The notes below the pieces were generated by a model. It worked only from the letters and a program-made list of their open reading frames with translations. It searched no databases and was not told where the DNA came from. DNA of 64,000 nt from Ruminococcus sp. GTDB lineage: Bacteria > Bacillota_I > Bacilli_A > RF39 > UBA660. The position numbers and the translations under genes are program-made. Shown here piece by piece: positions 36,710-57,408 of the stretch (positions within the stretch are counted from its first letter, which is position 1; the number at the start of each line of letters is the position of its first letter). The stretch lies in contig JAMPHW010000001.1 in assembly GCA_023663235.1 (NCBI GenBank), positions 51,392-115,391 on the forward strand, given 5' to 3'.

Positions 36710-37144
36710 ATGTTATTCGAAGATAACGATTTTGATATTAATGTATCTTTATTTATGCCTGATGTAAATCTTAATAGAAATGAATTTTTATTTGAACCAA
36801 TGGAAGGCTTTTTAAGAGGAAATATGTTTAAAAATGAATATTTACCATACAAAAATTTAACTTATTTTAAATTAGATCCAATAAATGAAAAAGAGAACGA
36901 TTTATATAAAGTAATGGCTTTAAGTTTTGCTATAAATGATTTAAATTTATATTTAGATTTACATCCTGACAATAAAGAAGTTTTCACCTTATTTAAAAAA
37001 TACATCGAAGAAAAAGAAAAACTATGTAAGGAATATGAAAAAAAATATGGACCATTAGAATTAACAAACACTATAGGTTCTAAATATAATTGGCTTAATT
37101 CTCCATGGCCTTGGGATAACTTAGGAGGTAGTTTATATGTTTAA
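36710..37144 (+). CDS. Spore coat protein CotJB-like, with an N-terminal CotJA-like extension (possible cotJA-cotJB fusion)
   Basis: ..LYLDLHPDNKE...KYGPL...SPWPW matches CotJB (LYLDTHPDD..KYGPL..PWPW). The N-terminal 50 aa resemble CotJA. Confidence 0.65.
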   Translation: MLFEDNDFDINVSLFMPDVNLNRNEFLFEPMEGFLRGNMFKNEYLPYKNLTYFKLDPINEKENDLYKVMALSFAINDLNLYLDLHPDNKEVFTLFKKYIEEKEKLCKEYEKKYGPLELTNTIGSKYNWLNSPWPWDNLGGSLYV

Positions 37145-37349
37145 ATATGTAAAGCATACCAATTTTCCTATCAATATTCGTAAAAAAGATTTAAAAATGG
37201 CTAAGTATCTTATTACACAATTTGGTGGTGCTAATGGCGAACTAGCTGCTTCTATGCGCTATTTTTCTCAAAAGTTTAGTATGCCAGACGATTATGGAAA
37301 AGCTCTACTTAATGATATCGCAACTGAAGAATTGGAACAACGATGTTAG
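37137..37349 (+). pseudogene. cotJC: 5' fragment of cotJC (Mn-catalase-like spore coat protein), truncated after about 66 residues
   Basis: ..AKYLITQFGGANGELAASMRYFSQKFSMPDDYGKALLNDIATEEL matches the CotJC N-terminus (AKYLIEQYGGADGELAA..RY..Q.....DIGTEE), then EQRC*. No continuation in any frame; phage-like genes follow. Confidence 0.7.
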
Positions 37350-37371
37350 AAATGTATTCTAATCAATTAAA

Positions 37372-37869
37372 ATGAACTGTAAAAACTTTAAAATAAAACA
37401 AAAAAATTATAAAAGAGTGTTCTTCTGTTCTGCTAAAAGAAAAGAAATAGATTATCATAATTGTAGCAAAGAATGCGAGCATTATGAAGATAAATATAAA
37501 ATGCAGACATGCACCTTAAACAATCCTAAGACGCAAAAAATAAAAAATATACCTATAAAAAACAAAAAATCAAAAGAGATAGCCAAGCTAGAAAGAAATA
37601 GGTTTAGTTTATTCTCTGATAATAAAAATAAGTGCTATCTCTGCCCTGCTACTACTGACTTAACTTGGCACGAAATATTTAGAGGCAGAAATAGAGCTAA
37701 TTCAATGAAATATGGACTATGTTTAAGATTGTGTATTAATTGCCACGAAAAATATCAAGAAGATAAAGAATTTAACGATTACTGGCATAAGAAAGCACAA
37801 ATTATTTTTGTTAAAACTTATTCAGATCTAGACTTTTTAAAAACATTTAAAAAGAATTATTTAAATTAA
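37372..37869 (+). CDS. Cys-rich protein with an HNH-like motif
   Basis: ..CYLCPATTDLTWHEIFRGRNRANSMKYGLCLRLCINCHE.. fits CxxC..HE..N..CxxCH. Confidence 0.35.
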   Translation: MNCKNFKIKQKNYKRVFFCSAKRKEIDYHNCSKECEHYEDKYKMQTCTLNNPKTQKIKNIPIKNKKSKEIAKLERNRFSLFSDNKNKCYLCPATTDLTWHEIFRGRNRANSMKYGLCLRLCINCHEKYQEDKEFNDYWHKKAQIIFVKTYSDLDFLKTFKKNYLN

Positions 37870-37934
37870 AAAAGATTTTTAACTTAAAATTTTAGTTTAA
37901 TGAACAAGTGAAAAAATTATTGGCTCTTGATTCT

Positions 37935-37989
37935 AACGATTTTATTAACGATTTTATTAACGATTTTATTTTTTATTAACGATTCTGTT
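37935..37989. repeat. Tandem 12-bp direct repeats AACGATTTTATT x3 plus a degenerate fourth (AACGATTCTGTT)
   Basis: 37935-37946, 37947-37958, 37959-37970 and 37978-37989, in a non-coding stretch near the prophage boundary. Confidence 0.6.
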
Positions 37990-38138
37990 TTTTACAGCCA
38001 TTTTATTTCTAAAGTTAAAGATAAATTAAATAATGATTGTAATTTTAAATTTAAAATAAAATAGCTATCATTAGTTTTCCTTAATTTTTTCACTTATTCA
38101 CTCCTTTCGGTAGCCTATTTTATCATAAAAATTAAAAA

Positions 38139-38279
38139 TTACAAGTACTCTTGCAAATCTTTTTCTAAAATTGTTTTATTATCATCTATTATGAAGTAAT
38201 GCTTATTTACTAAATAGATTCTTTTATTTTTATCTTTAAAAAGCATTACTTCTTTTACGTCTGACTCCCAATCAGGCAT
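38139..38279 (-). CDS. Small hypothetical protein (start uncertain)
   Basis: The ORF-track frame 38139..38441 has its N-terminus overlapping the plus-strand promoter. Probable start at the internal Met (MPDWESD...). Confidence 0.25.
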   Translation of the reverse strand: MPDWESDVKEVMLFKDKNKRIYLVNKHYFIIDDNKTILEKDLQEYL

Positions 38280-38385
38280 ATACTTTTTAGCAAACTTCTT
38301 AATTTGTCGTTTACTTAATTTCTTCAACAAAACCACCCTACTAAAATTATAATTCAAAAAAATATTTATTTCAATTAAATTTTTC

Positions 38386-38414
38386 TTGACATGTGTGTGT
38401 GAGTGTGTTATAAT
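38386..38414 (+). promoter_or_regulatory. Consensus sigma-A promoter (TTGACA-17-TATAAT with extended -10 TGt)
   Basis: ttgaca tgtgtgtgtgagtgtgt tataat, 30 nt upstream of the ATG at 38444. Confidence 0.6.
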
Positions 38415-38443
38415 ATATTTGTAAATGAAAGAAGGAAACAAAA

Positions 38444-38755
38444 ATGAGAATTGATTATACGTTCTTAATTAATAATTACAATGAAAATGAAAGATTAGTT
38501 ATCGAAAGTTCAATAGAACAAACGGTAAAAGGTGAAACTGAAAAAGCAGCATTGATAGAGTTTGATAGTGATTATGGAAAACTAACAAGATGGTTTCCTA
38601 AGTCAGTCATTAGTGGTATGACATTTACTAAAGGTACTGGTAAAATGATAAGACTTAAAAATGGAGAAATAAGAGAAGTATCTAACATTATGGGAGCTAT
38701 GGTTAGAGCTACTGATGGAAAAAGCTATCTTAAATCAACTGTTGAATTTATTTAG
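38444..38755 (+). CDS. Prophage accessory-operon protein 1 (hypothetical)
   Basis: 103 aa; first gene behind the consensus promoter. Confidence 0.5.
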   Translation: MRIDYTFLINNYNENERLVIESSIEQTVKGETEKAALIEFDSDYGKLTRWFPKSVISGMTFTKGTGKMIRLKNGEIREVSNIMGAMVRATDGKSYLKSTVEFI

Positions 38756-38774
38756 AAAGAAAGAAGGAAAAAAT

Positions 38775-39041
38775 ATGAAAAAAATTAATTATGAAAATTT
38801 AGGAGCTTATTTCAAAAAGAAAGCAGAAAATGAATTTGGTGAATGGTATTCTGATAATACTAACGACTGGGAAGAAGACATATCAAGAGCAGAAAATAAT
38901 GCTTACTATGATGAAATAGAAAACTTATACAATTGTCATTTAGAAGTTACAAAGGTAGCTAAAGCACCATTATTGATTGACTTTTATGTAAAGTATTATG
39001 ATGATAATGATTGTGAATACTTTATAGATGAGGTGAAATAA
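38775..39041 (+). CDS. Prophage accessory-operon protein 2 (acidic, hypothetical)
   Basis: Start moved to MKKINY, which has a GAAGGA RBS; 88 aa, acidic. Confidence 0.45.
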   Translation: MKKINYENLGAYFKKKAENEFGEWYSDNTNDWEEDISRAENNAYYDEIENLYNCHLEVTKVAKAPLLIDFYVKYYDDNDCEYFIDEVK

Positions 39042-39502
39042 TGAGAACTGCGGAGTGGTTAAAAAATAAAAGAGTTCAATACTCTTTAACGCAAGCACAG
39101 CTAGCTAAAGCGATTGGCGTAAGCTCTTATACTATTACAAACATCGAGCAAGGGCAACGTATGGGTTCAGCTGAAACTTGGGAAAAAATAGAAAATTATT
39201 TTAATGGCGAAACACCTACTAAAAAAATTTCTTATGAAAGTACTGAATTAATAGAAGAATTAAAACGAGATATAGAAGAATTTGGCGAAGATCATCCTTG
39301 CATTTTAATTTATAAAGTAGTTGAAGATTATATATTATTTACAAATTATGACTTCGTAATTGAAAAAGATAATCTTTTTCCAGATGAAAATGACCCTGAG
39401 CCATTTAATCCTGACAAAGAACTAGAACAAGGCGAAAGTTACATAGAGACTACTTTTAAATATGCTTTAGAAGTGTTTGAAGCACAAAATAAAATTATAT
39501 AG
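39041..39502 (+). CDS. XRE-type HTH domain protein with an acidic C-terminal domain
   Basis: N-terminal ..YSLTQAQLAKAIGVSSYTITNIEQGQRMGSAETWEKIENYF is HTH_3-like. C-terminal 90 aa acidic and uncharacterised. Confidence 0.6.
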   Translation: MRTAEWLKNKRVQYSLTQAQLAKAIGVSSYTITNIEQGQRMGSAETWEKIENYFNGETPTKKISYESTELIEELKRDIEEFGEDHPCILIYKVVEDYILFTNYDFVIEKDNLFPDENDPEPFNPDKELEQGESYIETTFKYALEVFEAQNKII

Positions 39503-39517
39503 AAAGAAGGAATTAAA

Positions 39518-39862
39518 ATGAAAAAATATTTTGTAATAATTGGTTGTGATAACTATTCACTAAAAAATGTACCATTTGATAAAGAAAAAAGGCTCTATGA
39601 TTTTGCTAAAGTAGAAGAATATAATGCATGTTCTAATATAGAAGAAAACGAATTTGATAGTTATGAAGAAGCTAAAAAGTACTTTGATAGTATAAAAAAA
39701 TTAGATTTAACTTGTAACGGAAACGATGTTTATATGGAATATAAGATGTTATTTGTTCGCGATGAAAATGGCGATGAAGTTCCAGAGTATGACGATATTT
39801 ATGTATACGCTAATGAACTTTACAATGATGAAGAACTGCAAAAAATATTACATATCGATTAA
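39518..39862 (+). CDS. Prophage accessory-operon protein 4 (acidic, hypothetical)
   Basis: 114 aa, GGAAT-type RBS; last gene before a bidirectional terminator-like hairpin at about 39872..39912. Confidence 0.45.
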   Translation: MKKYFVIIGCDNYSLKNVPFDKEKRLYDFAKVEEYNACSNIEENEFDSYEEAKKYFDSIKKLDLTCNGNDVYMEYKMLFVRDENGDEVPEYDDIYVYANELYNDEELQKILHID

Positions 39863-39915
39863 ATTGTTGTATAAAAAAGAGCTGCCTCATATATGAAGTT
39901 AACTCTTTTTTATAA

Positions 39916-40125
39916 TTAAACATAATAAATAGTTGTTTTGCCTAAATTGCATTTAACATAGGTCATTTCTCTTATTTCGCGTGGTGCGTCATCTACAGAG
40001 CCTTTGTATAATGGCTCTACATTTGATAAGCCTTTTAATTCTTTAACTTCATCGTACTTATAAACTTCTATGTTCATAGATCTACATATACCTATTTTTA
40101 AATATTCTTTTACTTCTACTTTCAT
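39916..40125 (-). CDS. Hypothetical protein
   Basis: 69-aa ORF. Confidence 0.35.
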   Translation of the reverse strand: MKVEVKEYLKIGICRSMNIEVYKYDEVKELKGLSNVEPLYKGSVDDAPREIREMTYVKCNLGKTTIYYV

Positions 40126-40218
40126 AATAATACCTCTAACAAGAGTATAAATTATTAAATAAGTATAGTCAATTATTTAATAAAATGTTATTATCTAAGT
40201 ATAAGGAGTATATATACA

Positions 40219-40479
40219 ATGAAAAACAATAAAGAAATTATTGAGCGTTTAAACAAAAGCGATAGCATAATGGCTAGCCTTGATGGAGCTGTTTTTATTC
40301 AAGCCGAAAGTGATGGAGATCTAGATGGTTTATTTGGTTCGATTATTGAAGCTTTAGTTAACATGATTGGGGCAAAAAAAGTAAAAGAACAATTTAATAA
40401 AAATATAGAAATGGCGGAAATATTAAGCAGTATGTCAAAAAAAGATAAGAAGAAACTATTTAATAATCTTCAAAAATAA
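40219..40479 (+). CDS. Hypothetical protein
   Basis: 86-aa ORF with a GGAG RBS, followed by the hairpin aaagagc-n11-gctcttt. Confidence 0.4.
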   Translation: MKNNKEIIERLNKSDSIMASLDGAVFIQAESDGDLDGLFGSIIEALVNMIGAKKVKEQFNKNIEMAEILSSMSKKDKKKLFNNLQK

Positions 40480-40496
40480 GGCATATAAAAAGAGCA

Positions 40497-40721
40497 TTAA
40501 TTAAAAAGCTCTTTCTTTTTGTTTTCAAACTCAAAATATGATTTTGTTTTATCGTAGCTTTCGTTTACTTCATTTTTGAAATTTTCAAAATGAGTTTTAC
40601 ACAAACTAAATGTATGTGTAGTGTTTCCCAAAATTATTTCTGCATTTACAATCGCTTTTTCTTCACAAAAATTGCAACAGTTTGATTTTTCAATCAATTC
40701 AAATTTAAAAATTTTATCCAT
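40497..40721 (-). CDS. Small Cys-containing (zinc-ribbon-like) hypothetical protein
   Basis: ..CCNFCEEK...SLCKTHF.. Confidence 0.35.
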   Translation of the reverse strand: MDKIFKFELIEKSNCCNFCEEKAIVNAEIILGNTTHTFSLCKTHFENFKNEVNESYDKTKSYFEFENKKKELFN

Positions 40722-40778
40722 AGACTAAAACCTCCTAAGGAATATTTTAACATAAATACATTTTATTGCAATAAAAAA

Positions 40779-40806
40779 AGAGCTAACCTCGAAAGAAGTT
40801 AGCTCT
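40779..40806 (-). terminator. Terminator of the lysis cassette
   Basis: Perfect hairpin agagctaac-n11-gttagctct overlapping the endolysin stop, with a T-run on the minus strand. Confidence 0.65.
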
Positions 40807-41614
40807 CTTTTATTTGTACACCATCTATTTCTTTTCCATAAACTCCTGCATATCCATCATTTGTATTGTCTACCTTTTTAACCCAAGGTAGCCAATCTTC
40901 GCCCTTAATGTGAACACGATATTGACAATTATACACTTGTAAGCCGTCTATAGACTTATTTAAAATGCCAGCATATCCATTTGAATTGGTAGCATTATAA
41001 TCTGTTATTTCAGCAAGCCAAGACCCATTTAAGGTATGTGCCTTATAAGTTTTATTTTTAACTTGAATACCATCTATCTCTTTTCCTAAAATACCCGCAA
41101 AGCCTTCGTTTGTGTCATCAACTTTATTAACCCAAGGCAACCATGAGCCATTTTTTAGATGAACTCTGTAGGCTATTCCATCTGTAATTGTTTCTGTAGT
41201 TTCGCTAGGTAAATCAGCATCTATATAAGGTTTAGGGTTTATTCTAACATTATTTGGAGTTCTTACTTCAAAATGTAAGTGCCTTCCTTTCGCATATCCA
41301 GTGTTGCCCATATATCCAATAACTTGTCCTTTAGCTACTGTATCGCCTTTATTAACTTTTACACTATTAAATGCCATATGTGCGTATAAAGTATAATAGC
41401 CATTATTATGCTTTATCTTTACATAATTACCATAGCTATGACCTGATGTATCAGTTCTATTATAGTTTTTAACTACTTCTACTACTACACCATCAGAATG
41501 AGCTATTATATAGTCTAATTGTTTATAATTTTTAACTAAATCAATACCAAAGTGTGTTGTTCCATTAAATTCCCAAGTAATTTGATTTTGTCCTGTTTTT
41601 AATACTCTACTCAT
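40799..41614 (-). CDS. Endolysin: M23 (LytM-type) peptidase domain plus three C-terminal cell-wall-binding repeats
   Basis: ..HFGIDLV...GYMGNTGYAKGRHLHFEV.. is the M23 motif. Three approximately 45-aa repeats follow (..NGSWLPWVNKVDDTNEGFAGILGKEIDGIQV..). Confidence 0.75.
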   Translation of the reverse strand: MSRVLKTGQNQITWEFNGTTHFGIDLVKNYKQLDYIIAHSDGVVVEVVKNYNRTDTSGHSYGNYVKIKHNNGYYTLYAHMAFNSVKVNKGDTVAKGQVIGYMGNTGYAKGRHLHFEVRTPNNVRINPKPYIDADLPSETTETITDGIAYRVHLKNGSWLPWVNKVDDTNEGFAGILGKEIDGIQVKNKTYKAHTLNGSWLAEITDYNATNSNGYAGILNKSIDGLQVYNCQYRVHIKGEDWLPWVKKVDNTNDGYAGVYGKEIDGVQIKES

Positions 41615-41796
41615 TACTTTTCACCATCTTTCTTTGCAAAATAAAAAGTCATCACCATAATGACTATATCTTTATAATCAGCTTCTACTATGCCTTTAAT
41701 ACACATAAATGTATAAGCTCCTACTACTCCTAAAGACAGAATACTTTTTAAATCTATTAGTTTAGCAAGCTTTTCTATTATAGGATGCTTTTCCAT
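41614..41796 (-). CDS. Putative holin
   Basis: 60 aa with two hydrophobic segments, immediately upstream of the endolysin. Confidence 0.45.
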   Translation of the reverse strand: MEKHPIIEKLAKLIDLKSILSLGVVGAYTFMCIKGIVEADYKDIVIMVMTFYFAKKDGEK

Positions 41797-42047
41797 TATT
41801 CATGCTTCCTCTCTAACTTTTCAAGCCTTGCATCAATTCTTTTTATATGTTCTTCTACTACCGGAACTCTATGAGCGAAGTTGTTATGCTCTCTAACCTC
41901 GCGTGTAAGTTCTTCTAACTTAGTATCAAAAACAGCTTGTTGCATTTCTAGTTGATGTTCTATTCTTTTATTGCTAGATATATTAGAAAAGACCACCCCA
42001 ATTAAAGATAGTCCTCCACTTATCAATGCTACTAATATCGCTTGCAT
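41796..42047 (-). CDS. XhlA-family phage hemolysin-like protein
   Basis: N-terminal TM (MQAILVALISGGLSLIGVVF) plus coiled-coil, matching the XhlA architecture. Confidence 0.55.
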   Translation of the reverse strand: MQAILVALISGGLSLIGVVFSNISSNKRIEHQLEMQQAVFDTKLEELTREVREHNNFAHRVPVVEEHIKRIDARLEKLERKHE

Positions 42048-42168
42048 AATTAATCACCTTCTGTTTTATTATCATTTAAAAGAGCCTCCACATTGGCTCT
42101 TAATTTTTCTGGAACATCATCAATGTTTTTTAATCCTTTTTGAATTAATCTATACCATATTTTTACCA

Positions 42169-42486
42169 TTATTCTGCACCTGCCAATTCTATCATTGCTA
42201 ATTGTAACTCAGTTATTTGTTCTTGAAGTTCTTGATTGATTATTTCTGGTACTGGCTCAACATAATCCTCATTTTTGTAGAAGCCTTTATCTTTTGTATA
42301 GCAATATTTACTTTCGCAAACGCCATCTGGAATTTCTATATTTTCATAAGTATGAGCTACTAAATATTTAGCTATTGCTAAAGTTCCGTTATCTACTAAT
42401 GGATTTCCATTTTTTTGATAGTCTAAAGTTTCACTTATATGAACTATCATATCTTCATTATTTGTTAACACGTACACTTTAATCAC
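42169..42486 (-). CDS. Phage hypothetical protein
   Basis: 105-aa ORF in the tail-fibre region. Confidence 0.4.
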   Translation of the reverse strand: MIKVYVLTNNEDMIVHISETLDYQKNGNPLVDNGTLAIAKYLVAHTYENIEIPDGVCESKYCYTKDKGFYKNEDYVEPVPEIINQELQEQITELQLAMIELAGAE

Positions 42487-43808
42487 TCTCCTTCTTCTAT
42501 TCTTGGTACGTATACCTTTATATTTTTACCACTTGTTCCCTTTTCTTTTGCCACTCCAAAAATAACATCACTAGAAGATGTTATTTGTTTTACACCATTG
42601 TTAAATTCTCCTAAAACTGTTATAAAAAGATTATCGCCTGTTGGTCTATCACTAACTACAATTTTATTATTTAGGTTTAAAGCAAAAGTATTATCATACT
42701 TTATTCCAGTATCTAACAATAGCCTTTCTACCACTGTTATGTTATCATTATCAAACGAATAAATTACTTTATAGGGTTTACTACTCACAACTTCATAAAT
42801 TTCAAATTCTGTTTCTGATAATATTTTTAATGTTGTAACGCTAGTTGGACTTCCCTCTACTTGAGTTGGTGTACATGGTATTAAAGTTTCATCATTTATT
42901 ACGCAAATCTGTGCTTGTTTTTTTCCATCACTATTGGTCCAGAACAATGCCACTCTAGTTTCATTTAATCTTATTACTTGTATTGCTTGGTATTTATTAA
43001 CATACCCACCAACATTTAAATCATTACTTTTATGATTTATACCATTGTCTACACCTTCTATTACTGAATACTTTAAAGGAAGATATGACGAACCACCCTC
43101 ACTATAAATTAATATCCCTTTATTTTCACTTAACATTATGGGCACATCTGCAAATTTATCTTCATAACCATTATAAACTGCAATACTAGCTACTGTACCA
43201 CTATTAACAGTTGTTCCATCAACAGTACATATTCTGTAAGATGGTTGGTATTTAGTACTTTGAGGGTAATTTTCATAAAATATAACTATTTTATTATCTT
43301 TCAATTTGAATATTGGTCCAATCCATTTGATGTCAGGATAACTAGATGTAGAATTATATATAATAGAATTATTGCATTCCTTTATTTCTAATCTATCTAT
43401 CACACAAATCGAGCATGTAATCTTTTTACCATTATTGGTTGGAGTTACAATAAGAACTTTGTTTTCATCTAATAATGTTATTCCTTGACTCCCATAAATT
43501 GTTTCGCCAAGTAGCAATATATCTGTTCCAAAAACAACTCCGCTATCGCTTATTTCACAAACAAAACCTCGGAGCTGTTTCATATTAGAATCGGAGCAAT
43601 GGCTTATAAAAATCCTATCATCTGATAACTCTACTGCTTTAACATATCCAAAATAATATGTTTCTTTAGTAACCTTATTAGCTTCAAAATCATTTATATA
43701 AGTAACGAAGTCTCCTGCGTTTATATTTCCACCTGACGCGACCATATAATCATTAATTATGCCATTTATCTTACTTCCTCCACCAACACCGTTTATTCTA
43801 CCCCTCAT
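42483..43808 (-). CDS. Putative tail fibre / receptor-binding protein
   Basis: 441 aa, by position between the tail module and the lysis cassette. Confidence 0.45.
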   Translation of the reverse strand: MRGRINGVGGGSKINGIINDYMVASGGNINAGDFVTYINDFEANKVTKETYYFGYVKAVELSDDRIFISHCSDSNMKQLRGFVCEISDSGVVFGTDILLLGETIYGSQGITLLDENKVLIVTPTNNGKKITCSICVIDRLEIKECNNSIIYNSTSSYPDIKWIGPIFKLKDNKIVIFYENYPQSTKYQPSYRICTVDGTTVNSGTVASIAVYNGYEDKFADVPIMLSENKGILIYSEGGSSYLPLKYSVIEGVDNGINHKSNDLNVGGYVNKYQAIQVIRLNETRVALFWTNSDGKKQAQICVINDETLIPCTPTQVEGSPTSVTTLKILSETEFEIYEVVSSKPYKVIYSFDNDNITVVERLLLDTGIKYDNTFALNLNNKIVVSDRPTGDNLFITVLGEFNNGVKQITSSSDVIFGVAKEKGTSGKNIKVYVPRIEEGE

Positions 43809-44742
43809 TATTACTCACCTCTTCTGGAATACTTAACTGATACAAAACTGATATCATGATATCACTTTCTGGTAACTCGCTTGCTTCTATTATAAAACCA
43901 CCATCGTATGAGTTTACAGAGCAAGCTCCTAATGTTTCTGCATCTTCTTGATTTATAAAGTCCACCATTATATAATGACTTGTTGTTATGTTAGCATTGC
44001 TTACATTGTACTCATACTTCTCTGTTTCTTCATTTAGAATCCAGTTTGATAATTTTAATGTTGTTGTATATGTCTTTAATTCTATAGAATCAACTTTATT
44101 TTTTACTAAAGTTATTTGATTAGCCAAATTTCCAGCAACATCTCCATCAAGTGTATTTTTTATAGTGTTAAACCAATCTTCAAAATTCTTTTGCGAATCT
44201 TTAATCAGCTTCTCAGCCTTTGCATATAGTTGAGCATATAATTCTTCAGTATTAGGAGTTTCAACAGAACAAATAACATTTCCACAATCACTATTAATAA
44301 ATCTTGTATCTTCTATTAAATCTTGAGTAATAGTTGTTGTACCTGCTGGAATATTAATTTTTGCTATTCTTAAATCATAAATAGTAGCTGACCTTACTAA
44401 ATCAGGAGCAACTGGTTCAGTAGCAAATTCTCCTTTTATTACTTTTGAAATAATTTCTCTACTCGTTAAATCTAGCCTTAATACTACATTATCTATACGA
44501 TTTAATACACCATCAGCATTGTCTATCAATAATAATCTTTTTGAATCATTATGATAACTATATCCATTAATATTTGCTGAGCCTATATCAACATTTACTG
44601 ACATATCATCATTTTCACCTAAAACCATACAGCCATTGTTAAAAATACCATTTGTAAAGTAATCTCTTAGTTTTCTTGCTACATCTTCTGCAAAATATAC
44701 TCTATCTCCATTAATATCATTAAAAAAGCCTGATTTCTCCAT
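43798..44742 (-). CDS. Phage tail protein (putative upper baseplate / fibre)
   Basis: 314 aa, by position. Confidence 0.4.
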   Translation of the reverse strand: MEKSGFFNDINGDRVYFAEDVARKLRDYFTNGIFNNGCMVLGENDDMSVNVDIGSANINGYSYHNDSKRLLLIDNADGVLNRIDNVVLRLDLTSREIISKVIKGEFATEPVAPDLVRSATIYDLRIAKINIPAGTTTITQDLIEDTRFINSDCGNVICSVETPNTEELYAQLYAKAEKLIKDSQKNFEDWFNTIKNTLDGDVAGNLANQITLVKNKVDSIELKTYTTTLKLSNWILNEETEKYEYNVSNANITTSHYIMVDFINQEDAETLGACSVNSYDGGFIIEASELPESDIMISVLYQLSIPEEVSNNEG

Positions 44743-44744
44743 GT

Positions 44745-45791
44745 TTATTCCTCCACTTCTAGACTTTCAGCTAAAGGTGTGCCAAAAGTCGCATAAATCT
44801 TTTGATTTTTATCTTCAATAATCTCTTCCACTTCAATTATTCTCTGTTTCATTGAAACATTCCAACTTTCTTTTTTTACATTAACTATATCTCCCAAATC
44901 CCAATATTTTTTATAATCATCAAAATAAACAGAGACTTCTACAGTTTCTGATACTTCTAATAATTCATTATTTCCAATTGTAAACAAAGTCTTTTTATAG
45001 TCACTTAATGTTGTATCTTCATCTAATGCTTCAGAAGAAGCATCTATAAATATTTCTTTTAATTCTAAATCTTTAAAATTTCCTCTTTTTACCTCAACAA
45101 TAATTCTATTACTACCTTCTCCACTACCACCAATCAAAGCATAATTCTTTTCATCTACTGAAGATAAAACATACTTAGATTCCTCTATATTCTCTCTATC
45201 TTCGCTAAATTCATAACGTGGATTAATATCCTGAGCATCTGTTCTATCTAACCCTTGATAATTATCATATATAAATTTTTTTCTATTAACATCAGCTGTT
45301 ATTCTATGAGCTATTGTCGAATTTTTAGATAATTTGTTTAAATACTCATAAACATTTTTGTAAGTACATTGAAAAACAATATTATTAGATTCTAAAATTG
45401 TATCTCTTATTTCTAACATTGAAAAAGGAGTCATTTCATTTAAAATTCTCCTTTCGCCATCTAAAATTTTTCCACTAAAATTAATTCTATTCTTAACTAT
45501 CCTTCGGTCTAAGATGCTAGATAAGAATCTACCAAAAATGGTAACTTCGACATATTCCCCTCTATCATCTATTTGCCAGCTTTCAACAATTCCATTTTCT
45601 ACTGCATCATCACGAATAATAATATTATCTTTGATTAAATATTTCATTGTTTCACTATTAAAAGGCATATGTAATTCAAATTCTCCCGCCTCAAAATATT
45701 TTCTGCGCCATCTAAGAGAGCTAAAATGATCTATAACTCCAATAAAAACTAAATCTTTAGTATAAACATAAATATCAAACTTTTCTATCAT
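44745..45791 (-). CDS. Tail-associated protein (Tal-like, ReqiPepy6 gp37-like N-terminus)
   Basis: MIEKFDIYVYTKDLVFIGVIDHFSSLRWRRKYFEAGEFELHMP..; lies after the Dit-like gene. Confidence 0.5.
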   Translation of the reverse strand: MIEKFDIYVYTKDLVFIGVIDHFSSLRWRRKYFEAGEFELHMPFNSETMKYLIKDNIIIRDDAVENGIVESWQIDDRGEYVEVTIFGRFLSSILDRRIVKNRINFSGKILDGERRILNEMTPFSMLEIRDTILESNNIVFQCTYKNVYEYLNKLSKNSTIAHRITADVNRKKFIYDNYQGLDRTDAQDINPRYEFSEDRENIEESKYVLSSVDEKNYALIGGSGEGSNRIIVEVKRGNFKDLELKEIFIDASSEALDEDTTLSDYKKTLFTIGNNELLEVSETVEVSVYFDDYKKYWDLGDIVNVKKESWNVSMKQRIIEVEEIIEDKNQKIYATFGTPLAESLEVEE

Positions 45792-46654
45792 TATATAGCC
45801 TCGTATTCTTGATAGAATTCAATTATAGCTTCTAAATTATCAGCACCCTCATCAGCATTATATCTAAAAGTATTTATTCCTCTATGAACTTGTAAAAATT
45901 TACTACCATAAACCATTAAGTTATTAATATTTTCTTCTTTACCAGTAGCCGAAGGAATATATATTATATTTTTATTTTCTCTGTAAGTACTCACTATTAC
46001 TTTATCTCCAGCATTCATTGATATATTAACTTTCATTTCTTCTCTACTATCTACATTGAATAAAGAAGGATTAATTACTATATCATTTGCTTTAAAAATA
46101 ATAGTCATACCATATTCTATATTACTATCATTTTTAATTACTGCCATTAAATTAGTATTTTTTTTACCAAACTTAATACCTTCTACTTCAGGAATTTGTA
46201 AAGGAAATTTAAAAGCAGGTAACCAAGTAGCCATTTGTAAAGTGGTTTTATCTACATCTGTAAAATATGGATTTTGACAAATCAATGAAATTTGAAATGC
46301 TTTATAAATACCTTTAAAATCAATTTTTATGCTTTCAACTCTATATTTAATTTTTCGTGCCAAATCATCTTCATAATAATATAAAGTACCAATAGTTCTT
46401 TGAGGAAAAATTCTATAAAGTAATTGTCGATTATTAATTATATTATCGGTTATAGTTCCTTTGATTACAATATTTCTTTTATTAATACTAGTTCCTGCAT
46501 ATATTTCTCCCACACCATATGCGCTTGTCATACCTGACACAGTACTTAGCATTTCATGTAAGCCAGACACATCATCAAGATGGAAAGGAAATCTATAGTT
46601 AAATTCTAACTTCTCTCCTAAATAAGATTCACAAATTATTTTTTTATTTGCCAT
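45791..46654 (-). CDS. Distal tail protein (Dit-like)
   Basis: 287 aa, immediately downstream of the tape measure gene. Confidence 0.55.
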   Translation of the reverse strand: MANKKIICESYLGEKLEFNYRFPFHLDDVSGLHEMLSTVSGMTSAYGVGEIYAGTSINKRNIVIKGTITDNIINNRQLLYRIFPQRTIGTLYYYEDDLARKIKYRVESIKIDFKGIYKAFQISLICQNPYFTDVDKTTLQMATWLPAFKFPLQIPEVEGIKFGKKNTNLMAVIKNDSNIEYGMTIIFKANDIVINPSLFNVDSREEMKVNISMNAGDKVIVSTYRENKNIIYIPSATGKEENINNLMVYGSKFLQVHRGINTFRYNADEGADNLEAIIEFYQEYEAI

Positions 46655-46664
46655 AGTTTTCCTC

Positions 46665-48833
46665 CTATCTATTTGCTAATTTCATATATTGTAATTCATT
46701 TCTAACTTGTCTAGCATATTCTGCTGGACTATCTTTTGGAGAATAAATATTAAAGTTATTAGTTTCATAATTATTAACATTGCTAACTCCTGTGCCTCTT
46801 GATACTAAATTTTCGCCAGCATTAAATGACACTTTTGATGATAATGTAGGTAAAGCATTTTCTATTGTATCATTAACGCCTTTCATTCCTTTTTCAAAGC
46901 CTACACCTATACCTTCTGCTAGATAAACTCCTACTTGGTCGCGCATTACCTTAGATGGACTGTTTATTCCGAATAGTTTCTTGATAAAATCCATAACATT
47001 ACCTACCCATCCTTTAATTTTGTCTTTAATCCAATCTAAGCTGCTAGAAATACCATTCCATAATCCTTTAACTAAATTTTTACCAACATCAGCCATACTA
47101 GACAATCCCTTTTTCAATGCTCCGGTAATAGAAGTTATAACTTGGGGTATTTTAGAAACCAAATCTGGAATACCTCTAATAATGCCTAAACCAATTTCTG
47201 CAATTATTCTTAATCCAGCCGATAAAATTTGAGGTAATAAGTTTATTAAAACGGAGTATATTCCAATAATTATTTCTGGAACTTTGGCAAGTAAGTCAGG
47301 CAAAGCATTCATAATACCAACAGTTAAAGCAACTATTATTTGAATAGCAGCTTCAATTAGTAAATCTAAGTTATCAAGTAGTATTGTAACTATTTGTAAT
47401 ATCACATCTACAATTGTTGGGATTAATTCAGGCAAGTTATTAGCTATTCCAGTTGCTAAAGCTGTTATTAACTGTAATCCTATTTGTATAATCATAGGTA
47501 AGTTCTGTAAGATAAAATTTACAAAACTAGTTAACAAATTAACAACTAAATTAGCAATAGGCTGAATATTAGTAGATATCATTGTAAACAATGAATTAAG
47601 CATATTTTGAACTGCTGTAAATAATTGAGGCAATAAATTCATCAACATGTCGCCAAGCTGAGGAAGTAAAGTTTCTATTAATTCCGTGATACCAGTTAAT
47701 ATATTAGGTGCTAAATCAGTTATAGCATTTGTAACATTTGTTACAAAATTTTTAATAGTTTTAGCTAATTGTTTTGAACTCCCAGAACCATTTAAGAAAT
47801 TATTGAAAGCTGCTTTCATTGATGTTGCACTACCACTTATTGTAGTTGCTGCTTCTTTTGCTGTTGTTCCCGTAACATCTAATTCTTCTTGAATTACATG
47901 AATTGCATTATAAACATCACTTAAATTATTAATATCATATTTAACTCCACTAAACTTTTCAGCATCGACAAGCAGTCTTTCCATCTCTGTTTTTGTACCA
48001 CCATAACCTAATTTTAAGTTATCTAGCATGGTATAATTTTGTTTTGCAAATCCTTGATAAGCGTTTTGGATAGAACTCATATCTGTGCCAAATTTATTAG
48101 CATTATCTGACATATCTTGAAAAGCCATATCCGCAACATCAGCTGCCTTAGATGTATCTCCACCTAAAGATTGTAATAAACTAGCTGTAAAAGATGTTAT
48201 GCCTTCCATATATTCATTAGCAGATACTCCAGCTGTTTCATAAGCTTTATTGGCATTATCAATTACTTTTTGAGCTGAATCCCCAAATAAAGTTTCTACA
48301 CCACCAATATTTTGTTCTAAATCAGCATAAGATTTAACCCCAGCTGCAACAACTCCAGCTAATGCTGTAGAAACAGCAACAACTACTTGAGCTACTTTTT
48401 TTATTACTTCTGTAGCTATATCTCCTACTTTTTTTAAAACATCTCCTACCTTGGATAAATCAATTGAATTAGTTTTTTTAAGTTCAGAGTTCATTTTTTG
48501 AATAGCATTTTCTGATTTAGTTATTTCAACAGACAAAGCTCTATAATTTTCTTTTTGCTCATCTGTTAAAGAATTGTAAGAGCCCATTTGTCTTTGAGCC
48601 TCTTTTAAAGCGTTTAATCTATCAGTTGATTCACTAATATTTTTCTTTAGTAATTCTTGCTTTTGAGCCAAAAGTTCTGTATTTTTTGGATCTAACTTTA
48701 ATGCTTGATTTAAAGATTTTAATTCACTATTAGTCGAATATATAACTTTATTAGTATTTTTTAAAGCATCATTTAGTTTTGTCGTACTTCCATCTATTTC
48801 GATAGTTATCCCTTGTAATTTTTTACTAGCCAT
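46665..48833 (-). CDS. Tail tape measure protein
   Basis: 722 aa with N-terminal coiled-coil (..KSLNQALKLDPKNTELLAQKQELLKK..) and a long hydrophobic/Gly-rich middle region, typical of TMP. Confidence 0.8.
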   Translation of the reverse strand: MASKKLQGITIEIDGSTTKLNDALKNTNKVIYSTNSELKSLNQALKLDPKNTELLAQKQELLKKNISESTDRLNALKEAQRQMGSYNSLTDEQKENYRALSVEITKSENAIQKMNSELKKTNSIDLSKVGDVLKKVGDIATEVIKKVAQVVVAVSTALAGVVAAGVKSYADLEQNIGGVETLFGDSAQKVIDNANKAYETAGVSANEYMEGITSFTASLLQSLGGDTSKAADVADMAFQDMSDNANKFGTDMSSIQNAYQGFAKQNYTMLDNLKLGYGGTKTEMERLLVDAEKFSGVKYDINNLSDVYNAIHVIQEELDVTGTTAKEAATTISGSATSMKAAFNNFLNGSGSSKQLAKTIKNFVTNVTNAITDLAPNILTGITELIETLLPQLGDMLMNLLPQLFTAVQNMLNSLFTMISTNIQPIANLVVNLLTSFVNFILQNLPMIIQIGLQLITALATGIANNLPELIPTIVDVILQIVTILLDNLDLLIEAAIQIIVALTVGIMNALPDLLAKVPEIIIGIYSVLINLLPQILSAGLRIIAEIGLGIIRGIPDLVSKIPQVITSITGALKKGLSSMADVGKNLVKGLWNGISSSLDWIKDKIKGWVGNVMDFIKKLFGINSPSKVMRDQVGVYLAEGIGVGFEKGMKGVNDTIENALPTLSSKVSFNAGENLVSRGTGVSNVNNYETNNFNIYSPKDSPAEYARQVRNELQYMKLANR

Positions 48834-48926
48834 TTCCTGTTATGATATTCACTTCCTTTCATAAGCACTAAAAAAACTACTTTTTCAATGAGTAGCCTTT
48901 TTACTACTCATAAAGAGTAGTTATTA

Positions 48927-49502
48927 TTAATCGGTTGGAGTTTCTTCTAATACTGCTTCATATACTTCATCAAAGAATTTTTTATAAGCTTCTGTATTAG
49001 TTGTATTTTCTGGCAATAATGCTCTAACTCTACCATCTGTATCACGAGGCATTGATTTAATAGTTAAACTATCAGTTGATGGCTCTTTAGAATTTTCTGT
49101 TGTTTTAGCATCATTCTTTGGACGAGAACAAGAGCAATTGTAATACCAAAATCTTCTTCCTTTTTCATCGCCTTCAATTTGGAAGCCTAAAGCAAATGGC
49201 TTGAATTTATCATTAGTGCTCTCAATAAGCGCACCATTAGCATCTTTAGTTTCTCCAAATATTTTTTCACGAATCTCATCCGTTATCATAGCTATTTCTA
49301 AATCACCTTCATAACCTTGATTAGCAGATTCTGAAAAAAATTTAATATTATCAGCATAGAAATCTGATGAATCGCCTTGCGGTTCTAAAGAAATGCTAAC
49401 TGCTCCATTAACTTTAATGATTTCACCATATATATAACTATTTTCTCCAATAGTCAATGGTGCAATATGTACATTACTTAATCCAAATTTTACTTTACTC
49501 AT
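48927..49502 (-). CDS. Major tail protein
   Basis: 191 aa, directly upstream of TMP. Confidence 0.6.
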   Translation of the reverse strand: MSKVKFGLSNVHIAPLTIGENSYIYGEIIKVNGAVSISLEPQGDSSDFYADNIKFFSESANQGYEGDLEIAMITDEIREKIFGETKDANGALIESTNDKFKPFALGFQIEGDEKGRRFWYYNCSCSRPKNDAKTTENSKEPSTDSLTIKSMPRDTDGRVRALLPENTTNTEAYKKFFDEVYEAVLEETPTD

Positions 49503-49516
49503 ATTTTTACCTCCTT

Positions 49517-49831
49517 CTATATTTCATAAAAAATATGATAAATTTTTTCAGTGCTATCCCATATTTCTTGTGTTTTTTCATATGGAATATTGTTATCAGT
49601 TAATAAATCAGATATTTTAGTTTCAAGTTCTACATCTTTTTTACTTGTAACAAGTTCAATCTCAAAATTAGAAAAAGCAGAATAAACTTTGTTATCTGCT
49701 CTAAAATTATTAGGAGATTGTTCTCTATAAGCCATAAATGGTGGTTCTATAATTTTATTATCAGAAAAATGATCGTATGCAACTGGTATTTTCACTTGTT
49801 TTAACAACTTTAATAATTCTTTATGTTTCAT
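49517..49831 (-). CDS. Phage tail-completion / neck protein
   Basis: By position in the connector cluster. Confidence 0.4.
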   Translation of the reverse strand: MKHKELLKLLKQVKIPVAYDHFSDNKIIEPPFMAYREQSPNNFRADNKVYSAFSNFEIELVTSKKDVELETKISDLLTDNNIPYEKTQEIWDSTEKIYHIFYEI

Positions 49832-49833
49832 AT

Positions 49834-50247
49834 TTAACCTCTGTTTTTAATAATTTCTTCAACATTTTTTTCAAATTCACTGCAACATTCATCATGTACT
49901 GGTGCAATATGCTTTTGTTTTGGAGTATATTTGCCACCATTACGTGTTAAATGTTCGTTTTCTAGCAAATGTGTTAATTGCCAATCGGTAGCATTATGAA
50001 TAGTGCAATTAACATAGCCTTCGCCTTTTTCTGTCTTTACTCTCCAACCTTTAGCATATCTGCCTTTGTGAGAAGTATTCTTTTTATTTTTTGGAGATGT
50101 TGATTTTAATTTTGATTGACCTTCTTTTGCTATTCTTTCTGCTTCTTCTGTAATAGCTTCTTGAATATCATGTGAATAATCACTTAAAATCTCATTAATA
50201 TCTAAAATAGAATTATATTTGCTCATATACCTATTTTCTTTTGGCAC
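49834..50247 (-). CDS. HK97 gp10-like head-tail joining protein
   Basis: By position and size (137 aa). Confidence 0.4.
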   Translation of the reverse strand: MPKENRYMSKYNSILDINEILSDYSHDIQEAITEEAERIAKEGQSKLKSTSPKNKKNTSHKGRYAKGWRVKTEKGEGYVNCTIHNATDWQLTHLLENEHLTRNGGKYTPKQKHIAPVHDECCSEFEKNVEEIIKNRG

Positions 50248-50531
50248 ACTAAAACAATATCAAATTTATTTTTAGGTTCAACAGTACGGATTATTGAGTA
50301 TTTTTCGTTATTCCATTCAAGCTCTTCTTCGCCATTATAGTTAAGTTTTTTTATAACAAATTCTATTGAAGGAGTAAGACCTACTTGAATAGCATTATAA
50401 AACTCGTTCATTCTTACACTTTGCTTTTTAGCATATATTTTTTTAGATGTTTCAGAAGAAGTGATACTGTTTCCAATATCATCTTCCTCTTTAATTTGTG
50501 AAATAAGATAAATAATTTCTGTATATTCCAT
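50223..50531 (-). CDS. Head closure / head-tail adaptor protein
   Basis: By position (102 aa). Confidence 0.4.
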   Translation of the reverse strand: MEYTEIIYLISQIKEEDDIGNSITSSETSKKIYAKKQSVRMNEFYNAIQVGLTPSIEFVIKKLNYNGEEELEWNNEKYSIIRTVEPKNKFDIVLVCQKKIGI

Positions 50532-50806
50532 TATTTATTTCCTTTTTCTTGGTACTCATCTAAGTGTCTTAATACATCTTTTTGGAGCACATAAGAATTA
50601 GAATACATTTCACTATTATTAACATCTAAAAAACTTAAAGCATAAGTAAGAATTGCAGTCTTGATTAAACTATCTTCTTTATCAACTGTACCTTTGGCTA
50701 TACCGATAGCCTTTAAATCCAACTTAGCAGAATCAATATAATTTTGAATTATATTATCAAAATCATTATGATTAATGCCTTGCATTTTCTTTATTTCTTC
50801 TAGCAT
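50531..50806 (-). CDS. Head-tail connector protein (gp6-like)
   Basis: 91 aa immediately after the major capsid gene. Confidence 0.45.
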   Translation of the reverse strand: MLEEIKKMQGINHNDFDNIIQNYIDSAKLDLKAIGIAKGTVDKEDSLIKTAILTYALSFLDVNNSEMYSNSYVLQKDVLRHLDEYQEKGNK

Positions 50807-50824
50807 AGCCTATCACTCACTTTC

Positions 50825-52021
50825 TTATTTTGAAGTAGCTTTAGCTTGAGCTGCAGTAGCTTTTCTGCCTAAAGTGAAATAATCTGGTCTTGCTTTACCA
50901 TCATAAATAGCATAACCACCATAAGTAGTTTTTCTACCTTTTACAGTTCTTTCTTTTTCAACTCTAGGTGCAACCACTTCATTTAAGATATAGTTTCTCA
51001 TGTTACCAGAAACAATATCATCGCCTTTTAGGTAAGGGTCTACTGCAATGGAGAACCCACTAACACTAGGAATACCTGCTAAGAATGGATAATTACCATT
51101 ATTATCTTTGTAAGATACAATATCCAAGTTAGTTTCTGTAGAAATATAAACTTTAGCTCCAATTCTAGCATCCTCTGATAAACCTCTATATGTGTTTAAA
51201 ACACGTTCAATAGCATTATCACCAGTAGTAATAGCAGATAAACCAGTTGTAATACCAGTTGGCTTATTCTCACCATCACCATAAATAACTGCATTAACTA
51301 AAGCCTTACCCATCTTATTTGCTAATTCATCAAGAATAAACGCAATAAATGAATCAACTGCCATTTCTTCTAATTTCCAAGTAATAACAATGTCTTTTGC
51401 AAGTTCCCAACCAGTAAGTTGCATATTTCTAAATTCTGCGCTACCATTTTTAGTGTCATCTAACTCAACATACCATTCTGCATCATCAGAACTAAATAAA
51501 TATGGTAAATCGATATTACCAGCAACTTGTAATTTTCTAACATCATTAAAAATTGGTGATTGTTTAGAAATTAACTCCATTAAGTCACTTCTTACACTTG
51601 TAGGAATAAATAAACCACCATTATTAATACCTTGCGTATTTTCAGCAGATGCTACAAAATCAGTAGCAGTAGTTGTAATTGCGTCTCCTAACGCACGTTT
51701 TTCGTCTTCAGTAAATCTTTCATCAGATAAACCCATTAATTTTTTTGCCCATGCACTTCTATATTCTGGACTAGATAAATCGAATTTTTTTTCTTCCATT
51801 TTTCTTTCCTCCTTAACTTCGATTTTTTTTGCTTCTAAACTTCCTTCTTCAAGTTTTTTAGCAACATTTTTTCTTTCTTCAACTTCTCTTAGTTCTTTTT
51901 CTTCTATGTTTAAAGCATCAACTTCTTCATTAAGTTTTCTTACTTCTTCTACATCTTCTAAAGTTCCCAAAGAAGCTTTAATTTCACTCTTTCGAGCTTC
52001 AATTTCTTGTAATCTATTCAT
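50825..52021 (-). CDS. Major capsid protein, HK97 family
   Basis: 398 aa with an N-terminal coiled-coil delta region followed by the capsid core (..GGLFIPTSVRSDLMELISKQSPIFNDVRKLQV..). Confidence 0.8.
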   Translation of the reverse strand: MNRLQEIEARKSEIKASLGTLEDVEEVRKLNEEVDALNIEEKELREVEERKNVAKKLEEGSLEAKKIEVKEERKMEEKKFDLSSPEYRSAWAKKLMGLSDERFTEDEKRALGDAITTTATDFVASAENTQGINNGGLFIPTSVRSDLMELISKQSPIFNDVRKLQVAGNIDLPYLFSSDDAEWYVELDDTKNGSAEFRNMQLTGWELAKDIVITWKLEEMAVDSFIAFILDELANKMGKALVNAVIYGDGENKPTGITTGLSAITTGDNAIERVLNTYRGLSEDARIGAKVYISTETNLDIVSYKDNNGNYPFLAGIPSVSGFSIAVDPYLKGDDIVSGNMRNYILNEVVAPRVEKERTVKGRKTTYGGYAIYDGKARPDYFTLGRKATAAQAKATSK

Positions 52022-52157
52022 TTGATTACCTCCTTCTTATTTGATAATCTTTAATGGCTTTAATCATTCCAATTATGGCTATCCAGCCTTTATCAATCGA
52101 CTTAGTCAGTATCCACCAACAAAAAAAGAACCATCCAGCTCTTTTCTCATAATCGCA

Positions 52158-52742
52158 TTAACCTAATTTTTCTAATAATTCTTTTTTTACTTGTTCTAAC
52201 TTTTTAGATTCCCTAAATCTTTTTTCAGTTTCAACTAAAGAACGAGCATAAATTGAAGTACTATCATAGAATGGTTGATCCACTACCGCCACATCATATA
52301 GCTTATCTATATCAATAATTGTACGTGTATCTGTATTATAATCCCACTCTTCACTACGAGTAGTAAATGCAAAACTCATTTTATCTAGCAAACCACTTTT
52401 AATACCTTCATAAATGGATTTATGTTCTGGTATATTAGGATTTAATGTTGCCTTCATTTTTAAACCTTTTTCATCTTTAGCGAGTTCTAGCGATTTGTTT
52501 CTAGTTCTGGCTAAACATATAAAAGAATCATTATGATTATATCTAAGAACTACATCTGTCATGTCTGTATTATCAAAAGCAGTTGATGCTATAATTTCTG
52601 TATATCCATGAGTAGCAGGGCTATTAAAAACCACAGGATAACCTTCTATAATCATTTCTGTTTCATTATCAATCGCTCGCATTTCTAAATCTAAATTTAA
52701 GCATCTAATTTCTTTACTCTTCATTTTCTTCATCTCCTTCAT
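52158..52742 (-). CDS. Prohead protease (HK97 / S78 family)
   Basis: ..EGYPVVFNSPATHGYTEIIASTAFDNTD...VLRYNHNDS.. Confidence 0.7.
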   Translation of the reverse strand: MKEMKKMKSKEIRCLNLDLEMRAIDNETEMIIEGYPVVFNSPATHGYTEIIASTAFDNTDMTDVVLRYNHNDSFICLARTRNKSLELAKDEKGLKMKATLNPNIPEHKSIYEGIKSGLLDKMSFAFTTRSEEWDYNTDTRTIIDIDKLYDVAVVDQPFYDSTSIYARSLVETEKRFRESKKLEQVKKELLEKLG

Positions 52743-57384: not shown

Positions 57385-57408
57385 TAATACAGAAAGTGAG
57401 GTGAGACA

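Follow-up and report, generated by a model that had tools for sequence, protein, structure and literature searches.

A prophage boundary that interrupts spore-coat gene cotJC in the genome of an uncultured gut Bacilli lineage resembles skin- and SPbeta-type insertions

Prophages that split a sporulation gene and excise in the mother cell are a textbook example of a genetic switch built from a mobile element. To our knowledge, few targets of such elements have been studied, nearly all of them in cultured Bacillus and Clostridium. We describe here a 64,000-nucleotide stretch (the window) of a metagenome-assembled genome (MAG) labelled Ruminococcus sp. (assembly GCA_023663235.1, contig JAMPHW010000001.1, positions 51,392 to 115,391), in which the spore-coat gene cotJC, encoding a protein of the manganese catalase family, breaks off within its first half and gives way to phage DNA. 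An initial reading of these letters (the original prediction) had proposed a skin- or SPbeta-type arrangement, with a prophage boundary in a sporulation gene, and this was borne out: the boundary lies inside cotJC, and a large serine recombinase (LSR) of the matching clade is encoded on the same contig. The window is a further example of this known arrangement, and represents no new system or mechanism.

For the elements SPbeta, skin, vfbin, gin and yin, excision depends in every case on sporulation or on the growth phase (PMC4191935, PMC5499854, PMC5025042, PMC5595907, PMC10747680). SPbeta, which occupies spsM of B. subtilis and uses the integrase SprA and the directionality factor SprB, is, like the element described here, an apparently complete LSR-type temperate phage in a mother-cell gene for the spore surface (PMC4191935, PMC5499854). 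Its recombinase gene lies at one prophage end beside the attachment (att) site, and its excision restores the reading frame, a likeness that at our locus is in part predicted. The two differ in the target, which is cotJC rather than spsM, in the phage, which is unrelated and a siphovirus of an estimated 35-37 kb as against 134 kb, and in the host, here a member of the uncultured low-GC gut Bacilli. Unlike for SPbeta, no SprB-like factor or sporulation promoter was identified at our locus, and excision is a prediction. The skin-type elements of sigK (SpoIVCA in B. subtilis, CD1231/CD1234 in C. difficile, phiS63 in C. perfringens) likewise combine a prophage or prophage-like element, a serine recombinase and a sporulation gene, and sigK elements occur in both Bacilli and Clostridia (PMC5025042, PMC3442830). 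However, sigK encodes a regulator that gates the sporulation programme, whereas cotJC encodes a structural or enzymatic coat protein, and the consequence here would concern coat composition and not timing. In addition, B. subtilis skin is defective, whereas the element in the window looks like an intact phage. Other gene-intervening elements are vfbin in spoVFB, gin in gerE and yin in yabG. Insertions into cotJC, yaaH and yhbH are attributed to Abe et al. 2013, with cotJC named as a used target (10.1101/2021.11.22.469490), and a C. difficile CotJC homolog is placed adjacent to phi027 (PMC11222575). In a search of the open literature on cotJC with prophage or integrase, and on manganese catalase with attB, we found none of the features reported below described for cotJC, namely its att site, the clades of recombinase, the pair of hot spots and the presence in gut metagenomes.

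The open reading frame (ORF) behind cotJB, which it overlaps by 8 bases, encodes only the start of CotJC, as had been proposed: its match to the Mn_catalase model (E=8.9e-17) covers positions 1-67 out of 284, it shares 91% identity with an intact relative over the latter's residues 2-71, and it ends in ...DIATEELEQRC*. When the full CotJC of a relative (190 residues) was compared with the whole window using tblastn, residues 2-71 alone were aligned, at 37125-37334, and no counterpart of residues 72-190 was detected anywhere in the 64 kb, in agreement with the claim that the rest of the gene is missing from the window. Host-derived sequence in this stump reaches about 37330-37332, the final codons, (L)EQRC*, and the stop being phage DNA, and the insertion falls after codon 64-65 of about 185. 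The full set of di-manganese ligands (Glu, ExxH, Glu, His; PF05067) is absent, the stump ending inside the ExxH motif. Judged by its sequence, the ORF is a gene fragment that would not yield a functional CotJC or manganese catalase.

Relatives were collected by scanning one genome per species with the CotJB protein. This gave 55 loci, nearly all from uncultured gut 'Bacilli' MAGs (rabbit, chicken, mouse and human). A full-length cotJC (185-190 residues) follows directly behind the same 144-residue form of cotJB in 46 of the 55, and in one further locus (L030) cotJC is cut solely by the end of the contig. The related genomes were checked for the same short ORF without a prophage, and none was found. 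Because most relatives keep an intact cotJC behind the same cotJB, the window's ORF reflects an insertion and is not a short paralog. On alignment with the intact cotJC of L005 and L002, DNA identity ran through ...GCAACTGAAGAATTGG and was lost after 37335. The original prediction had suggested looking for a junction near 37335-37350; the junction lies at 37329-37332, and not at the stop codon.

The break falls within the metal-binding motif TEELGH, at its second Glu codon (37329-37331), and the centre of symmetry is GA (37329-37330). We built a position weight matrix for the P arm of the att site from 22 independent loci, using the arms that precede cotJC 3' parts aligned at the second Glu codon of TEEL, and used it to score all 26-mers on the two strands of the window. 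Among these 127,948, the single highest score, 17.6 bits, was that of the reverse complement of 37331-37356. All 22 P arms share the motif (G/C)A(T/C)AACATC, which ends 11 bases ahead of the second Glu codon, and TAACATC stands at an equal offset from the junction in the P arm and, in mirrored register, in the P' arm of the window. This P' arm, ATTGGAACAACGATGTTAGAAAT, also closely resembles ATTAGACCATTGAAGTTAGAAAT, the P' arm in L382, and ATTAGAACAATGATGTTTGATAT, the P arm in L377 when mirrored, both of which adjoin related LSR genes. At attR junctions, cotJC identity never needs to start before GA, the preceding base being T or C in most phages as compared to A or G in cotJC, and at the attL of L370 cotJC identity is gone three bases after GA. 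Since the start of cotJC identity at attR and its end at attL, in different phages, bound the crossover, it could be placed within GAAT, at 37329-37332. On these sequence grounds the junction is an attL of the serine-integrase type, consisting of a B arm, a 2-bp crossover and a mirrored P' arm, and attB was reconstructed as …ACTGAAGAAYTNGGNCAT… The coordinates of the site and of the neighbouring features are given in Table 1.

Table 1. Coordinates of the cotJ genes, the attachment site and the prophage genes in the window
Feature	Coordinates	Strand	Annotation
cotJB, 144 residues	36710..37144	+	Pfam CotJB at residues 65-136, E=1e-24; NCBI MCM1052430.1, 'spore coat protein CotJB'
attL (B-P')	37303..37356	+	cotJC B arm, GAAT crossover at 37329-37332, then P' half-site ATTGGAACAACGATGTTAGAAATGTA at 37331-37356
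cotJC 5' fragment ORF, 70 residues	37137..37349	+	Pfam Mn_catalase; NCBI MCM1052431.1
Temperate siphovirus prophage	37331..64000, runs off the window	-	Lysis/accessory end first; PHROG/Pfam annotation
First phage gene, 165 residues, Cys-rich	37372..37869	+	phrog_7566 (PHROG), a family with no assigned function; MCM1052432
Accessory/regulatory block	38139..40721	.	Divergent ORF pair, HTH_3 regulator at 39041-39502, small ORFs
Lysin (M23 peptidase)	40799..41614	-	Pfam Peptidase_M23, E=1.6e-25; MCM1052441.1
Tail module	42483..49502	-	Virion proteins of 441 and 314 residues, minor tail (348), Dit (287), tape measure (722), major tail (191)
Dit, minor tail, tape measure	43798-48833	-	PHROG
Major tail	48927-49502	-	PHROG
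Head and packaging module	50825..56398	-	PHROG; 108-residue ORF in the small-terminase position
Major head	50825-52021	-	PHROG
Protease	52158-52742	-	PHROG
Portal	52714-53943	-	PHROG
Large terminase (TerL)	53943-55631	-	PHROG; MCM1052458
HNH endonuclease	56054-56398	-	PHROG
Early/replication region, small ORFs, continuing beyond the window	56913..63899	-	
DUF4145/phrog_1305 'DNA binding protein'	62699..63370	+	On the strand opposite to the early genes; 100% identical to NCBI MCM1052479.1 (NC483_00655)

The DNA downstream of the stump is phage-like, as had been claimed, with PHROG and Pfam matches from the lysin through the terminase and HNH endonuclease, and the terminase, portal, protease, head, tail tube, tape measure and lysin genes stand in the order canonical for a temperate tailed phage (a siphovirus with an HK97-type head). 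All ORFs of at least 250 residues in the prophage part are annotated as structural or lysis genes, except for a 441-residue ORF of the tail region that had no PHROG match. The tail proteins, including Dit, are 46-52% identical to those of a phage inserted in cotJC in another genome (L384). Relatives of TerL were present in IMG/VR at 60-90% identity, with early regions that are mosaic and with no LSR or cotJC within the retrieved flanks. Metagenome contigs yielded 0 matches to an exact 52-mer and, when scanned with the DUF4145 protein, a best identity of 59%, and a phage collection contained no close relative, the single match being one of 272 bp to a Streptococcus phage. The window contains no tRNA gene and no recombinase of any LSR type. 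As no recombinase is present, the junction in the window would be the lysis/accessory end of the prophage, and the lysogeny module, with repressor and integrase, would lie beyond 64000. A tyrosine integrase was considered and rejected, as the window's prophage part contains no integrase-like ORF.

The first phage gene shares the strand of the cotJ operon and begins 22 bp past the stop codon of the stump, and no terminator-like site was found between the two; transcripts started at the cotJ promoter could therefore extend into phage DNA. The product had no Pfam match and no meaningful sequence match in the PDB. A homolog in L289 is also the first gene inside its prophage, there beside tRNA genes, which ruled out the gene as specific to cotJC. 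Just downstream of it, at 37934-37994, is a perfect 12-bp tandem repeat (TAACGATTTTAT, 3.1 copies) with an overlapping 19-bp repeat, and short repeat arrays also flank the homologs in L288 and L289; the repeats may be protein-binding sites. The divergent ORFs of the accessory block (38139-38441 on the minus and 38444-38755 on the plus strand) share a promoter region, 38324-38481, in which a sigma-70 promoter matching the consensus at 12 of 12 positions (TTGACA-17-TATAAT, extended TG) lies at 38386-38414. We read this region as a small regulatory switch or a moron cassette at the prophage end.

The candidate recombinase was placed by means of the protein accessions of the contig, which follow gene order, as nine window proteins looked up in addition to that of the DUF4145 gene showed: MCM1052428 is a GH31 protein (encoded by the left neighbour of cotJB), MCM1052430 and MCM1052431 are CotJB and the stump, MCM1052432 is the 165-residue protein, MCM1052441 the lysin, MCM1052458 TerL, and MCM1052479-481 are the products of the last three genes of the window. 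MCM1052498.1 (P0242), 17 proteins after the last window gene on the same contig (locus tags NC483), is an LSR of 542 residues, and was the second-best match to the LSR of L377 among 5.8 billion proteins. Its identity to that enzyme, encoded immediately ahead of a cotJC 3' part, is 65%. It is also 64.6% and 57.7% identical to the LSRs of L013 and L026, which adjoin cotJC 5' parts, and 79.5% and 73% identical to those of L382 (P0241) and L383 (P0247), both adjoining cotJB-cotJC'. The DUF4145 gene near the end of the window lies, in many other phages, 3-5 kb upstream of an LSR gene abutting a cotJC fragment. With genes as dense as in the rest of the prophage, 17 of them would take up about 8-10 kb, for an estimated total prophage length of 35-37 kb, and the accessions and locus tags indicate no pseudogenes between 37372 and 63370. 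The LSR gene would abut the missing 3' half of cotJC about 8-10 kb beyond 64000, as is the case in L377 and L374-L381.

This clade of LSRs occurs in two placements, either beside the 3' fragment of cotJC (L377, L136 and others) or beside the 5' fragment (L013, L026, L382, L383), and in both the crossover is some 20 bases away from the end of the LSR gene. As the arms are near-palindromic, polarity would be set only by the asymmetric crossover dinucleotide, with GA read in either direction relative to the integrase gene. This is the simplest reading, and it also draws on general knowledge of serine integrases. Since there is no LSR at its junction, the window would be of the type with the LSR beside the 3' fragment; the orientation we propose follows from this absence and from the arrangement in L377.

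We conclude that the window junction is very probably the attL of a temperate siphovirus that was integrated into the cotJC coding sequence by its own LSR. Integration by the LSR would have split cotJC in the second Glu codon of TEELGH and, in destroying the ExxH metal-binding motif, would leave the lysogen with only a 70-residue CotJC stump that lacks the manganese-binding site. The LSR acting with a recombination directionality factor would then excise the prophage precisely, restoring GAA-GAA-YTN-GGN-CAT and with it an intact cotJC. At the far junction the LSR gene should be followed by ...AAT-GA-ACTTGGNCATTG... with the 3' part of cotJC in frame. In B. subtilis, cotJ is expressed in the mother cell under sigmaE, and by analogy cotJ of the window's host would be expressed there as well. 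Excision in the mother cell would supply CotJC for the spore coat, and the forespore chromosome would keep the prophage. That the terminally differentiating mother cell is indeed a site of excision, as for skin, SPbeta, vfbin, gin and yin, is a proposal by analogy that we consider the likeliest reading, though at no better than about even odds.

Several points weigh against integration by this LSR and a regulated return of the gene. The window stops at 64000, short of the far end of the prophage, and a cotJC 3' protein of 115 residues from the NC483 contig is not among the best 120 CotJC matches, which leaves its absence or its annotation as a pseudogene. The LSRs nearest to that of the contig, those of L382 and L383, adjoin the 5' and not the 3' fragment. 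Neither a directionality factor nor a sporulation promoter was identified. Finally, cotJ mutants of B. subtilis show mild phenotypes, and regulated excision is therefore not required to explain why the insertion is tolerated.

The site used in the window is occupied repeatedly. Independent interruptions at the same codon were found in L013, L026, L293, L370, L382, L383 and L384-L387; in L013 and L026, cotJC is cut at the window's site with the LSR gene converging on the 5' fragment, and the phages of L370 and L384-L387, which carry a putative diversity-generating retroelement, are in the same orientation as that of the window. In related hosts the 3' halves of cotJC start at the same codon, in frame. 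The contigs of L004 and L008 end at CotJC residues 69-71, that is, at the att site, which suggests that occupied and empty sites were mixed in those samples and broke the assembly. Clustering at 90% identity placed the window's 70-residue stump among 25 members, on dozens of contigs. We also searched IMG/VR with the C-terminal part of CotJC and obtained 80 viral contigs. The 3' part of cotJC starts at residues 56-70 in 31 of these (site B, the window's site; in a few, the alignment starts some residues earlier than the shared codon) and at residues 16-47 in about 47 (site A). At site B, 17 of the 31 contigs have an LSR gene of the L136/L293/L013 type whose end lies 33-92 bp upstream; at site A, LSR genes of the L059 type end 8-109 bp upstream in 37 loci. 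The recombinases of both sites have Resolvase and Recombinase domains and in some cases a Zn ribbon. Each hot spot therefore has an LSR clade of its own. In hosts with the same 115-residue cotJC 3' fragment and the same genes downstream of it, site B is occupied by no fewer than three different prophages; these three encode LSRs of 721, 602 and 545 residues, in the order repressor, LSR, cotJC 3' part.

Some of these elements were of interest in their own right. Site A, a hot spot at the QFGG/QYGG codons, was seen in L059 (13996-15973), in many of L140-L210, and in L305, L310, L319, L343, L347, L348 and L371-L373. Its LSR clade (L059 type) shows 37-47% identity among members, includes many prophages of higher-GC Clostridia, and stands beside either the 3' or the 5' fragment. 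In L370 (616-5413), L384 (10300-13534) and L385, from hosts close to that of the window, a reverse transcriptase gene beside tail-fibre genes looks like the retroelement mentioned above. In L025 and L027, cotJC is cut at this other hot spot, at about residue 31-37. The 3.7-kb element of L027 (10458-14742), with both gene halves on one contig, has four small ORFs besides the gene of a 480-residue LSR, which converges on the 5' fragment; it has no phage structural genes, and resembles gin in gerE (PMC5595907). These observations allow a wider reading that we put forward only tentatively, and that we hold to be rather unlikely as a whole: cotJC may be a pan-Firmicutes developmental landing pad on which two unrelated-looking LSR clades have specialised, one on the QFGG and the other on the ExxH region, so that gut spore-formers would make CotJC only after excision in the mother cell, with the cotJ sporulation promoter possibly driving the first phage genes. 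On this reading, the elements at these sites range from 3.7-kb cassettes with only a recombinase to phages carrying retroelements, in either orientation.

The strongest competitor to regulated excision is that cotJC serves the phage as a safe harbour and nothing else, a conserved site dispensable in vegetative growth, from which the prophage would leave on lytic induction only, with no developmental switch; spores of the lysogen would then lack this CotJC or rely on a paralog. We judge this somewhat short of an even chance. The target is the most conserved stretch of cotJC (ExxH), which by itself would open many hosts to an integrase, the targets of the two LSR clades are two conserved motifs, and the site is occupied by many different and apparently complete phages. 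cotJC is probably dispensable for growth, some Clostridia have two manganese catalase/CotJC paralogs side by side, and in C. difficile loss of the CotJC homolog adjacent to phi027 was judged unlikely to matter (PMC11222575). However, every experimentally tested LSR element in a mother-cell sporulation gene was excised during sporulation or in a growth-phase-dependent manner (PMC4191935, PMC5595907, PMC5025042, PMC10747680), and the host lineage keeps cotJB-cotJC intact in most genomes, indicating that the gene is under selection.

It is improbable that the prophage is a dead end, that is, a defective or rearranged element that has permanently inactivated cotJC with loss of the 3' half. The window holds no 3' half, and no cotJC 3' protein of this contig appeared among the best 120 CotJC matches; nevertheless, nothing is missing from the structural, lysis and early modules, whose long ORFs are intact, the span from 37372 to 63370 is free of pseudogenes in the annotation, attL retains a high-scoring half-site, and a full-length LSR of 542 residues is encoded at the expected distance. 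The least credible alternative, a naturally short CotJC-like paralog or a chimeric assembly with no real insertion, might be entertained for a genome assembled from a metagenome at a place where contigs of relatives often break (L004, L008), but it can for practical purposes be set aside in view of the relatives with a full-length cotJC behind the identical form of cotJB, the coincidence of the break to the base with a recombinase half-site, and the recurrence of the same type of host-phage junction in independent assemblies from different samples.

The cotJB gene, which is preceded by a strong ribosome-binding site, was correctly recognised as CotJB-like in the original prediction, which had further taken it for a fusion of cotJA and cotJB. 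The extension is real: residues 1-64, ahead of the CotJB domain, occupy the place usually held by cotJA, and no separate cotJA was found upstream of cotJB in the window. The same form of the protein (141-159 residues) was found in 38 related MAG loci, all 38 full-length relatives keeping the 64-residue extension with the invariant core GFLRGNMFKNEYxPYKN. The homology to CotJA, however, was not statistically supported. Three CotJB N-terminal extensions gave no match to CotJA (Pfam PF11007) even at E<=10, whereas a bona fide CotJA (L054), used as control, matched at 2.8e-13. Comparison of the extension profile with bona fide CotJA using hhalign gave E=0.12 and a probability of 0.5%, with the expected core motif QGTEAGTLFQELDKPF aligned. 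A resemblance to CotJA persists in position and motif, and the extension may be a degenerate CotJA module. It is the normal form of the gene throughout the lineage and unrelated to the prophage, and no anomaly. The classical three-gene cotJ, with a CotJA of 64 residues, was seen in more distant Clostridia.

Some further observations concern the host and its cotJ locus. The cotJB-cotJC relatives were nearly all MAGs of uncultured Bacilli, 'Mycoplasmatota' or Candidatus Coprovivens, and the GC content of the window is low, about 28%; the NCBI label 'Ruminococcus sp.' on the source MAG looks wrong. Between two of the related species, the two-gene cotJB-cotJC unit is inverted in place (L002:6657-12691 versus L005:8185-14359), where it is flanked by an LtaS-like gene and two small genes on one side and by cdaA and a gene for a 540-residue coiled-coil protein on the other. 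In L384, which belongs to the host lineage, spoVA genes lie near cotJ. Elsewhere in the window, the leucyl-tRNA synthetase (948 residues, 29473-32319, minus strand) shows a match to a NUDIX domain (residues 404-500) that separates the editing domain from the remaining catalytic core. At 6929-17161 (minus strand), downstream of genes of the size of tuf, fusA, rpsG and rpsL, are two adjacent giant proteins of 1773 and 1602 residues, each with an N-terminal NPCBM/NEW2 carbohydrate-binding domain, which are probably surface glycan-binding or glycosidase proteins. A Bro-N domain protein of 284 residues and an overlapping 135-residue ORF (32306-33571, minus strand), located outside the prophage between leuS and the GH31 gene, may be the remnant of another mobile element.

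The comparative picture, with two hot spots in cotJC, two LSR clades, insertion in both orientations and heavy use of the site in gut metagenomes, including those of uncultured Bacilli, adds modestly to what is known of these elements. The window and the related loci supply the cotJC attachment site at the level of the base together with the recombinase clades that use it. This makes the cotJC case directly testable, and provides natural attB/attP pairs for a family of serine integrases. If the wider landing-pad reading were true, the dependence of CotJC on excision would extend to uncultured Bacilli with reduced genomes, and expression or excision of the phage could be coupled to sporulation by way of the cotJ promoter (from 37372 onward).

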